Shown here: in pieces, positions 55,079-56,171 of the stretch
Numbering within the stretch: position 1 is the first letter of the stretch
Layout: each line of letters starts with the position of its first letter
DNA from: Candidatus Uhrbacteria bacterium
Lineage (GTDB): Bacteria; Patescibacteriota; Patescibacteriia; UBA9934
Direction of reading: 5' to 3'
DNA: 64,000 bases
Assembly: GCA_903827265.1 (NCBI GenBank)
Contig: CAIKHN010000024.1
Span: 3,332 to 67,331 of the forward strand
Made by a program: the position numbers and the translations under genes
Notes under the pieces: model-generated
The model's database searches: none
The model's input: only the letters and a program-made list of their open reading frames with translations
Told to the model about the DNA's origin: nothing

Positions 55079-55151
55079 AATGGGCGAATTATAGCGAAAT
55101 ATTTGTTTTTCAACAAGAATACTGTTACCATCGCACTGCACAGGAGTCCAC

Positions 55152-55481
55152 GTGAACCACATCATCACCGCGTCCCTCGCCGCTTTTGGCGCTTTCCTCT
55201 CATCGGCGTTCGCAATCCTCTTCTTCGCCAGGTGGGTGTCTCGCGTTGGCCCCATCATCCGCCCGGACGGAGCCACAGAGGGCGAAGAGTTCAGCGATCC
55301 GCACCAGCTCTGGCTTACGAGCGGGATCGTGGCAACCCTCGTCGGGATCGGCTTCGGTCTCATCAGCCACATCCTCATGACCGATCAAAAGAGCATCGAC
55401 AACTACGTTCTCGCCATCGTCGTCACGAGCACCATGCTCACGGTCATCTTCAAGAAGACCGGACGCATGCGGAGCTCGTGA
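55152..55481 (+). CDS. small two-TM membrane protein, hypothetical
   Basis: GTG start with an AGGAG RBS. Hydrophobic N- and mid-segments; G+C-rich. Confidence 0.4.
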   Translation: MNHIITASLAAFGAFLSSAFAILFFARWVSRVGPIIRPDGATEGEEFSDPHQLWLTSGIVATLVGIGFGLISHILMTDQKSIDNYVLAIVVTSTMLTVIFKKTGRMRSS

Positions 55482-55507
55482 GAACCAGAACCGCATCACA
55501 ACGCCAC

Positions 55508-55546
55508 CACTCGCGCCCCGGACGACCCCGGGGCGCGAAGTCGTTT
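55508..55546 (+). terminator. GC-rich hairpin terminator, copy 1 of an exact 39-nt repeat
   Basis: cactcgcgccccggacgaccccggggcgcgaagtcgttt with an 11-bp stem; identical to 56036-56074. Confidence 0.6.
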
Positions 55547-55624
55547 ACAGAGCTTTTTCCGCGAATTCTTGCGGAGAATTGATTTTTTTGCTATATTTCC
55601 TTCACCCTACGGCTGGGTTCAGCT

Positions 55625-56011
55625 GTGTTCAGACCGGACATCTCGATGGATAAGCACAACGTTCTCTCCCTTCTCACGATCTGCACGATCTTCTTCACCA
55701 CACTTCTCATCCCTTTCTCTGTCTGGAGTGGGCAGTTCTTCAAACGTGCCTCAATGCAAAGCAACGGCTGGACCAACATCCTGTGGGTACCGCTCATCAT
55801 CGTCTCGAACGTGCTGATCGGCCTCATCCTGGGCACCTCCGGCTGCATCGTCTTCGCGGAAAACATGGGATGGCCACTAGATGAGAATGGGATAGATGAG
55901 AATGGGAATCCGATTTTCGAAGTCGCAATGCGGATCCCGCAGGTTATTTGGCTCATCGGATTCCTCGTCGGACTCTTCCAGGTAACGAAAACGAGCAGTC
56001 CCGATCGCTAG
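55625..56011 (+). CDS. small multi-TM membrane protein, hypothetical
   Basis: GTG start at 55625, or ATG at 55646. Three hydrophobic segments. A TTGCGG-17-TATATT promoter lies upstream. Confidence 0.4.
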   Translation: MFRPDISMDKHNVLSLLTICTIFFTTLLIPFSVWSGQFFKRASMQSNGWTNILWVPLIIVSNVLIGLILGTSGCIVFAENMGWPLDENGIDENGNPIFEVAMRIPQVIWLIGFLVGLFQVTKTSSPDR

Positions 56012-56035
56012 GAAACGACGGCACCGCCCCCAACG

Positions 56036-56074
56036 CACTCGCGCCCCGGACGACCCCGGGGCGCGAAGTCGTTT
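56036..56074 (+). terminator. GC-rich hairpin terminator, copy 2 of the exact 39-nt repeat
   Basis: Identical to 55508-55546. Confidence 0.6.
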
Positions 56075-56171
56075 TACCCACAATTCACCGCCAATCTTTG
56101 ACAAAAAAGGGTTCAACTGTTACTCTTTTGCCACTTAATCGACTGTATACAAAGCAGTCTCAACTCCCTCT

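Follow-up and report, generated by a model that had tools for sequence, protein, structure and literature searches.

The attC sites of integrons are recognized by R'' and R' sequences that pair as a 7-bp R box, by an imperfect L box with extrahelical bases and by a length of ~55-140 nt, and the cassettes to which they belong are promoterless. In REP/REPIN-RAYT systems, repetitive extragenic palindromic (REP) sequences occur as many dispersed intergenic copies, often as inverted pairs, and are also found beside the RAYT gene. In Neisseria, minimal mobile elements (Saunders and Snyder 2002, as cited in PMC1797815) are alternative whole-gene contents that different strains carry between the same conserved genes, with no mobility gene, and their exchange is explained by homologous recombination in the flanks after DNA uptake (PMC1797815). 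Here we describe a locus in a 64,000-nt stretch of DNA from a Candidatus Uhrbacteria bacterium (GTDB lineage Bacteria; Patescibacteriota; Patescibacteriia; UBA9934; GenBank assembly GCA_903827265.1, contig CAIKHN010000024.1, positions 3,332 to 67,331 of the forward strand; hereafter the window), in which an exact 39-nt repeat that forms a GC-rich hairpin follows each of two small open reading frames (ORFs), ORF1 and ORF2, in the interval between the genes queA and rpmE. The locus is best read as a new example, from the Patescibacteria, of known kinds of element: it would combine intrinsic terminators with a hot spot that resembles minimal mobile elements.

The two hairpins resemble intrinsic terminators in their GC-rich 11-bp stem, 6-nt loop and AACG...CGUUUU frame, in lying soon after a stop codon on the sense strand, in having a stable stem that is kept by compensatory change, and in sharing their form with other terminators of the window; they differ in that the U-run has only 3-4 residues, with an internal loop of 3x3 or more between it and the inner stem, and in that copy 1 fails a simple terminator scan. 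The interval as a whole, which we refer to as the slot, resembles minimal mobile elements in that its contents vary over 12 lineages, divergence around it is mosaic and mobility genes are absent. It differs from them in that almost only the ORF is swapped, the promoter, the start of the 5' untranslated region and the terminator belonging to the flanks, in that its products are mostly orphan proteins with three transmembrane (TM) helices and of one compositional class rather than those of restriction-modification or other recognizable genes, and in that two units can be stacked. With integron cassettes, including those of clusters of attC sites lacking integron-integrases (CALIN), the locus shares small, often orphan ORFs that are each followed by a palindrome, head to tail and in one orientation; with REP/REPIN-RAYT systems it shares a short GC-rich palindrome past genes, identical copies and the presence of a Y1 transposase-like gene in the window.

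Two hairpins and the two small ORFs before them

The 39-mer, CACTCGCGCCCCGGACGACCCCGGGGCGCGAAGTCGTTT, is present in two exact copies on the + strand (Table 1), and no third copy was found in the window when up to three mismatches were allowed; in a shuffle control, 0 of 100 shuffles contained a match. Each copy holds a perfect 11-bp GC stem with the 6-nt loop ACGACC (arms at 55511-55521 and 55528-55538 in copy 1, and at 56039-56049 and 56056-56066 in copy 2). On the coding strand, the 39-mer begins 27 nt after the stop codon of ORF1 (TGA, 55479-55481) and 25 nt after that of ORF2 (TAG, 56009-56011), and the stem begins 30 and 28 nt after them, respectively. Exact match, stem and position thus bear out the first-pass annotation, which had reported an identical repeat directly after each of two small ORFs. 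The edges of the identity are sharp, as the sequence outside the 39-mer agrees between the two sites at the level of chance (0.65 upstream against an expected 0.59 +/- 0.06, and 0.53 downstream against 0.48 +/- 0.05).

The fold energy was -28.8 kcal/mol for copy 1 (z -4.6) and -35.9 kcal/mol for copy 2 (z -5.3), with 0 of 200 shuffles reaching an equal value, and copy 2 can form an additional outer helix between GAAACGAC (56012-56019) and GUCGUUUU (56068-56075). The same form, an A-tract followed by a stem and TTTT, is seen in other terminators of the window, at 10589-10622, 27821-27855 and 59662-59692. We conclude that both copies of the 39-mer are predicted intrinsic terminators, and the identical hairpins themselves are ordinary terminator biology. 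Comparison with families of known RNAs gave no match at the gathering threshold and only noise at E <= 1. A pseudoknot between the loop (ACGAC) and the tail (GUCGU) was considered and rejected on geometry, since by our own reasoning a linker of 1-2 nt is too short to span an 11-bp stem.

The 39-mer had no exact match in 185,579 GTDB species genomes. When the stem was searched for with a free loop, 11 metagenome matches and one viral match were obtained, all of which had other loops and flanks; we take them for terminator-like hairpins that arose by chance in unrelated GC-rich DNA, and rejected the idea of a repeat common throughout the genome, a possibility that the first-pass annotation had raised. 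The same searches bear on whether the 39-mer might be a small mobile palindrome, of the REP/REPIN type or a miniature inverted-repeat transposable element, that a Y1 (HUH) transposase dispersed and that inserted into the spacer on two occasions. Such an origin would suit a short, perfect, intergenic palindrome whose copies are identical between flanks that agree only by chance, and the window does encode a Y1_Tnp/IS200-like protein (10638-11486; Pfam E 3.6e-12). We nevertheless consider it very improbable, because the palindrome occurs as two direct copies at a single locus in 64 kb and nowhere else in the loci of relatives, its matches in metagenomes and a virus are limited to the stem, it has no GTAG-type 5' motif, the Y1 gene has its own 33-nt inverted repeats that are unrelated to the hairpins, and both copies stand in register with the relatives' terminators, which argues for replacement in place and not for insertion.

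The Y1 protein is 282 aa long and is encoded on the - strand. The inverted repeats beside its gene (10630-10662 and 11491-11523) are 94% complementary and are the sole two copies in the window, and a perfect 17+17-nt palindrome (10589-10622) lies just downstream of the gene, so that the segment 10589-11523 looks like a self-contained RAYT/IS200-type unit.

Each of the two ORFs is predicted to encode three long hydrophobic helices, in keeping with the earlier description of small multi-TM proteins; AlphaFold models, which were built from single sequences (pLDDT 66-70), were used for helix counts only. The non-ATG start that had been ascribed to both holds with certainty for ORF1, whose GTG lies 5 nt past the Shine-Dalgarno (SD) sequence AGGAG (55142-55146), but for ORF2 a GTG at 55625 and an in-frame ATG at 55646 are equally plausible. 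The DNA had also been called G+C-rich, and it is moderately so (0.53-0.61 compared with ~0.50 for the window), the excess lying at codon position 3, where the GC content (GC3) is 0.83 in ORF1 and 0.72 in ORF2 compared with 0.51. When the six frames are compared, the codon score is highest in the sense frame for both ORFs, and that of ORF1 (0.144) falls within the range of 24 trusted genes (0.11-0.28). In ORF2, an exact 15-nt tandem duplication (TAGATGAGAATGGGA x2, 55878-55907) is in frame and encodes DENGI-DENGN in the loop before the third helix.

Public gene calls at the locus consist of a 98-aa acidic ORF antisense to ORF1 (55200-55496, - strand) and the C-terminal 48 aa of ORF2 (55865-56011, + strand). 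Because codon statistics and position-3 GC favour the sense ORFs, these calls are probably mis-annotations and the sense three-TM ORFs are probably real genes whose translation is predicted.

The proteins encoded by ORF1 and ORF2 had no similarity to one another that was detectable by BLASTP (none at E <= 100), by Smith-Waterman alignment (z -0.3) or by the profile alignment that the first-pass annotation had proposed (hhalign negative); what they have in common is architecture (three TM helices, 109-121 aa) and composition only. Searches of Pfam, PHROG, PADLOC and NCBIfam gave no match for either ORF, phage and plasmid sequences yielded no homologs by blastn, and no gene for a partner lysin or antitoxin was seen in the window, the neighbours being queA and rpmE. 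These results lend no support to the earlier suggestion of small toxins or holin-like peptides, and the protein searches likewise turned up no unrelated housekeeping homologs of either ORF.

Table 1. Features of the queA-rpmE interval, in window coordinates
Feature	Position	Strand	Description or basis
queA, left anchor	54080..55078	-	Pfam Queuosine_synth E 5e-122; 100% identical to public protein P0001, 332 aa
Divergent promoter region	55079..55151	.	Predicted; hexamers read from sequence; weakly homologous to the conserved promoter module of relatives
ORF1	55152..55481	+	109 aa, GTG start, three predicted TM helices; best codon frame
Terminator hairpin T_A, copy 1	55508..55546	+	Predicted; stem-loop, loop ACGACC, tail AAGTCGTTT; fold energy; in register with relatives' terminators
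Internal promoter module P' for ORF2	55547..55645	+	Predicted; homology to the queA-proximal module of relatives
ORF2	55625..56011	+	Three predicted TM helices; 128 aa with the GTG start at 55625, 121 aa with the ATG start at 55646
Terminator hairpin T_A, copy 2	56036..56074	+	Predicted; flagged by terminator scan; fold energy
Right flank J GTCGTTTTACCCACAATTCACCGCCAATC, rpmE promoter and leader	56068..56171	+	Near-invariant in alignment A2
rpmE (ribosomal protein L31), right anchor	56172..56483	+	Pfam Ribosomal_L31; followed by prfA and prmC (PCRF/RF-1, PrmC_N)

The queA-rpmE slot in related genomes

In the window, the genes around the interval are arranged in the order tsf-rpsB (- strand), two small ORFs, queA (-), ORF1, ORF2, rpmE, prfA and prmC (+), and a DUF3048 gene (-). 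The best match to queA among GTDB species genomes, from a distant relative, a Candidatus Uhrbacteria metagenome-assembled genome (L001; 56% identity), has the same genes in synteny with only ~105 bp between queA and rpmE, compared with 1.09 kb in the window, and the spacer of the window is therefore an insertion into a conserved housekeeping block of a Patescibacteria genome. A protein search with queA yielded more than 100 relatives, from 90% down to 60% identity, in a groundwater clade of Patescibacteria (candidate phyla radiation, CPR). We compared the queA-rpmE spacers of 11 lineages, and the comparison of slot contents took in 12 lineages; rpmE-prfA-prmC synteny was kept in all relatives.

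At least seven different contents were found between queA and rpmE across the 12 lineages. Lineages L096 and L104 have in common one family of TM ORFs (109 aa), and L106 and L108 have a second (113 and 107 aa), the two members of which are 41% identical while the queA genes of these two lineages are 91% identical. Two further TM ORFs stand in tandem in L099, a 205-aa soluble ORF fills the slot in L112, a ribbon-helix-helix (RHH) gene is its only content in L102, L109, L110 and L111, and L093 has a 2-TM ORF together with a CopG/RHH gene and a toxin stub. No mobility genes and no terminal repeats belonging to the contents themselves were found in the slot, the gene tables and spacers of all loci showing small ORFs and conserved flanks.

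All nine TM ORFs of the slot are open, are 84-121 aa long and encode 2-3 hydrophobic helices. Their GC3 is 0.72-0.88 and their C content at position 3 is 0.34-0.59, compared with a GC3 of 0.52-0.57 for queA and with lower values for the RHH genes. The ratio of nonsynonymous to synonymous substitution rates (dN/dS) is lowest in the sense frame, at 0.49 for L096 versus L104 and 0.30 for L106 versus L108. Constraint on the slot ORFs is thus weak and their evolution fast, which would explain the missing homologs. No relatedness was detectable among the slot families, or between them and ORF1 or ORF2, by pairwise z or hhalign; we therefore rejected, as a homology that is not shown, the idea of a single fast-evolving family (pairwise z mostly 0-3, hhalign probabilities <1%), although similar size, topology and composition mean that all may still belong to one. 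Shared 8-9-mers between the flanks of ORF1 and L093 or L108 (CCAGAACC, GTTACCATC) were not relied on, because 10-45 8-mer matches per TC-rich pair are usual.

Several of the slot ORFs have distinctive starts. The ORFs within L096:3415-4000 and L104:3414-4000 start with CTG 6 nt past GGAGG, and those within L106:2475-3046 and L108:219-818 (reverse strand) with GTG past AAGGTGA. A non-ATG start behind a strong SD is, as predicted from these sequences, a recurring feature of slot genes that includes ORF1 (GTG, AGGAG).

Other observations concern individual occupants. The CopG/RHH_1 gene of the slot (within L093:3140-4000, reverse strand; also in L102, L109, L110 and L111) is preceded by a palindromic operator-like repeat, tgtaagacaNtgtcttacattgtcttaca, and in L093 a 38-aa stub resembling a truncated toxin comes after the gene, which suggests that an eroding toxin-antitoxin module may be an alternative or ancestral occupant of the slot. 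The ORF of cassette 2 of L099 (3088-3432, reverse strand) matched PADLOC effector models for PycTM and 4TM weakly (E 4e-4 to 3e-3); these matches probably reflect transmembrane composition, yet they are the sole hint of a link to defence effectors.

The flanks of the slot are conserved to a degree that its contents are not. On the queA side, the module TAGGCTAATnCTTGCGGAAAAGCAA is common to all relatives. On the queA strand it reads TTGCTT, 17 nt and TAAAAT, with its end ~9 nt short of the start of queA; the opposite strand reads TTGCGG, 17 nt and a -10-like hexamer ahead of the slot ORF. The module is thus a putative bidirectional promoter with palindromic -35 elements. In the corresponding region of the window, a promoter is predicted for queA on the - strand (-35 TTGTTG, 55111-55116; -10 TATAAT, 55088-55093) and another for ORF1 on the + strand (-35 TTGTTT, 55103-55108; 17-nt spacer; -10 TACCAT, 55126-55131).

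On the rpmE side, each allele with a TM ORF ends in a GC hairpin followed by (G)TCGTTTTAYMCACAATTCACCGCCAATCTTTGACA, which leads into the rpmE -35 element. One such hairpin, T_B (GACGCCRCCC-ACGC-AGGGTGGCGTC), is near-invariant behind three unrelated ORF families (alignment A2). In the window, the segment made up of flank J and the rpmE promoter and leader is 87-94% identical to its counterparts in L096, L104 and L106, and the rpmE promoter is predicted at TTGACA (56098-56103), a 17-nt spacer and TACTCT (56121-56126). The non-coding flanks are 86-91% identical in genomes whose queA genes have a synonymous divergence (dS) of 1.0-2.2, at which synonymous sites are saturated, and this points to strong selection or to homogenization by recombination.

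When the sequences from stop codon to flank were aligned, the hairpin of the 39-mer, T_A, fell in register with T_B (in L096, L104, L106, L108 and L099) and with a third version, T_C (in L093), all three lying between (A/C)ACGCC and TCGTTTTA. T_A and T_B agree at 21 of 39 ungapped positions, compared with 12.3 +/- 2.8 under the null (p ~0.001). The common register and this match suggest that T_A is one of the lineage-dependent forms of the terminator hairpin of the slot, as opposed to an element that was inserted there. Copy 2 of the window is 91% identical over 57 nt to the terminator of cassette 1 in L099, and the 28-nt hairpin of the L099 T_A has only two differences, which form one compensatory pair (C-G to A-U); all 15 modelled pairs are kept in the three sequences (45 of 45 cells paired). 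By our own estimate for this single event, the chance that two random substitutions are complementary partners is ~1 in 80. The 3' modules all fold beyond shuffles (z -3.3 to -6.6), several of them with an outer AAAACG/CGUUUU helix.

Tandem units, the identical hairpins and probable exchange of slot contents

The 99 nt between copy 1 and the ATG of ORF2 (P', 55547-55645) match the promoter module of relatives with a z of 8.1 (0 of 300 shuffles), and contain a predicted -35 TTGCGG (55569-55574), a 17-nt spacer and an extended -10 TGCTATATT (55589-55597). An alternative origin of the region upstream of ORF2 as a copy of the rpmE promoter was rejected, since its match was not significant (z 1.1-1.6) and it is the queA-side module of relatives that matches instead. 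From the homology of P', the window appears to hold two units, [promoter, ORF1, T_A] and [P', ORF2, T_A], followed by the rpmE promoter. The duplicated cassette with a reused terminator that the first-pass annotation had proposed therefore survives as far as the regulatory frame is concerned, in which promoter modules and terminators are homologous; it does not extend to the proteins, which have no detectable similarity. The same two-unit architecture is found in an independent relative, L099/L100/L101, in three separate assemblies. At the internal joint of L099, the right flank breaks off after its first 21 nt and the promoter module begins a second time, a signature, on its sequence, of two slot units joined head to tail; the two terminators of L099 differ (T_A then T_B), whereas those of the window are identical.

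In a rival explanation the hairpins are attC-like sites of site-specific recombination, and ORF1 and ORF2 are mobile cassettes captured in succession by a recombinase encoded elsewhere in the genome. In its favour, one imperfectly extended palindrome, with AAC at its 5' and GTT at its 3' side, comes after each of two unrelated small orphan ORFs, different ORFs occupy one site in different strains, the identity of the 39-mer ends abruptly, and cassette 2 of L099 lies between copies of a 21-nt direct repeat (GTCGTTTTATACACAATTCAC). The details of the hairpins make this origin a very slim prospect. Agreement with the R'' (RYYYAAC) and R' (GTTRRRY) consensus is limited to the triplets AAC and GTT, the sequences being TCACAAC/CCCCAAC and GTTTACA/GTTTTAC with their outer four positions unpaired and off consensus; there is no L box consensus, and the perfect 11-bp stem has no extrahelical bases in an element that is, at ~45-50 nt, too short. 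Each ORF has its own sigma-70-like promoter, and P' copies a resident module. No tyrosine or serine recombinase domain, and no integrase, was found in ~60 larger ORFs of the window scanned with Pfam or in the precomputed gene tables of the relatives. The repeat has other boundaries in L099 (GTCGTTTTATACACAATTCAC) than in the window (hairpin plus GTCGTTT), which does not resemble a fixed crossover point, and the hairpin stands at the orthologous terminator position in alleles with a single ORF.

We favour an explanation in which the 39-mer serves as the intrinsic-terminator module, T_A, of an expression slot that this groundwater clade has conserved between its divergent queA and rpmE genes, and put its probability, taken whole, at roughly 0.65. 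Each unit of the slot would comprise a sigma-70-type promoter module that doubles as the queA promoter on the opposite strand, a short ORF of fast turnover, usually of ~110 aa with three TM helices and very high GC3, and a GC hairpin framed by AACG...CGTTTT that abuts the rpmE promoter. The two hairpins of the window would be paralogous copies of one terminator module, each of which would end transcription of its own small gene and insulate the next promoter, first P' and then that of rpmE. As the unit cannot have been duplicated recently as a whole, given its chance-level flanks, the identity of the copies may have arisen either by short-tract gene conversion, bounded by the AACGC... and ...GTCGTTT microhomologies, or by tandem joining of two slot alleles that both had a T_A flank; both routes fit the data.

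Several points weigh against this explanation. Perfect identity between chance-level flanks fits neither an old duplication of the whole unit nor plain vertical descent, so that an extra event is needed. The U-tract is weak, with three Ts in copy 1 and four in copy 2 that lie 5 nt off the inner stem (in both copies the Ts abut the outer AACG/CGTT helix and not the inner stem), and in a simple terminator scan copy 2 passes (five Ts in eight) and copy 1, with the tail AGTCGTTTAC, misses by one T. The compensatory change is a single event for which the shuffle control was not significant (170/500), and the search for copies of the 39-mer covered 64 kb of the source genome and ~9 kb per relative. 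As for the genes, the codon score of ORF2 (0.067) is under the range of typical genes, a word-indexed search of 5.8 billion proteins found no homologs of ORF1 or ORF2, and public annotation contains neither the sense ORF1 nor the full ORF2.

These last three points would be expected if ORF1 and ORF2 were not genes at all, being instead non-coding GC-rich filler or a decaying pseudogene, with the hairpins as leftovers or structural DNA. That would also fit an exhaustive HMMER search of 1.84 billion representatives, in which ORF2 found only its own 48-aa annotated fragment, as well as the weak constraint on related slot ORFs (dN/dS 0.3-0.5), whose differences are spread near-evenly over codon positions. 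We think it improbable, given that the nine slot ORFs have all stayed open and encode hydrophobic helices, with the position-3 bias in GC and C confined to that frame, that the sense frame is the best of six for ORF1 and ORF2 and the one of lowest dN/dS among relatives, that good SDs precede ORF1 and the ORFs of L096, L104, L106 and L108, that the 15-nt duplication in ORF2 keeps the frame, and that the ORFs are bracketed by conserved promoter and terminator modules.

An exact repeat at 528-nt spacing could also stem from mis-assembly or be an artefact of tandem duplication. This is scarcely credible here, since the copies are separated by unique sequence and the ORFs are unrelated, the two-unit architecture recurs in the three assemblies named above, and the public gene calls to either side yield products with exact matches on 18 contigs each (NCBI, ENA), from which the locus is not a one-off of assembly. 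All 18 of the 18 public contigs with an identical queA also hold both ORF fragments. The first-pass annotation had pointed out that the repeat might mediate deletion or inversion; a direct repeat could give a deletion but not an inversion, and the 18 contigs all keep both fragments.

The history of the slot can be followed in one pair of lineages. Between L096 and L104, dS is 1.34 for queA, 0.37 for the slot ORF and 0.39 for rpmE, and nucleotide identity steps from ~0.75 to ~0.9 near the 5' end of queA. The mosaic dS and the step in identity imply that the two sides of the slot have different histories, which indicates a putative recombination breakpoint at the slot. Lineages probably swap slot contents when incoming DNA recombines homologously with the conserved flanks, a route that we infer from these alignments and for which a dedicated recombinase would not be needed. 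Natural competence has been shown in cultivated Patescibacteria (Saccharibacteria) (PMC10633639).

A bolder form of the slot explanation is that the locus is a recombinase-free expression slot, in which an ultra-conserved frame of bidirectional promoter and terminator would serve as docking homology, only the stretch from SD to stop codon would turn over, yielding lineage-specific, GC3-rich three-TM orphans that can be stacked in tandem, and the hairpin would be both a terminator and a homology for joining or conversion. We regard this form as doubtful. If it were true, the locus would be a dedicated site of diversity for surface, immunity or phage-exclusion proteins in ultra-small episymbiotic bacteria or, alternatively, a place where membrane genes originate de novo.

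Neighbouring features and significance

A second islet lies on the far side of queA from the slot, at 53049-54079 between rpsB and queA, and its content also varies among relatives. Its 148-aa ORF (53583-54029, - strand) corresponds in position to the Response_reg-like ORFs of L102, L109, L110 and L111; the islet segment is absent from L099, L112 and L001, and some relatives have two ORFs there. Elsewhere in the window, an islet at 25000-28000 (GC 0.57-0.60) contains a GGDEF ORF (25965-26672, + strand; E 2e-26) that overlaps longer - strand ORFs without Pfam matches, and the longest-ORF calls in this islet are probably wrong. Among its ordinary features, the window also encodes a protein with the phage-associated BRO-N domain (17706-18524) and a LexA gene that adjoins one for a Y-family (ImpB/DinB-like) polymerase (38090-41181).

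The modestly interesting parts of the locus are the slot, its fast-evolving orphan membrane proteins, whose expression is predicted, and their mis-annotation in public records: the slot proteins are invisible to current annotation because the public calls are either on the wrong strand or cover just a fragment. The locus represents a compact, well-bounded case of gene-content turnover in the reduced genomes of Patescibacteria, and with its native promoter and terminator it could act as a natural neutral or insertion site for genetics in the clade. The orphan, strain-specific membrane proteins that it holds are plausible players in host attachment, immunity or phage exclusion.

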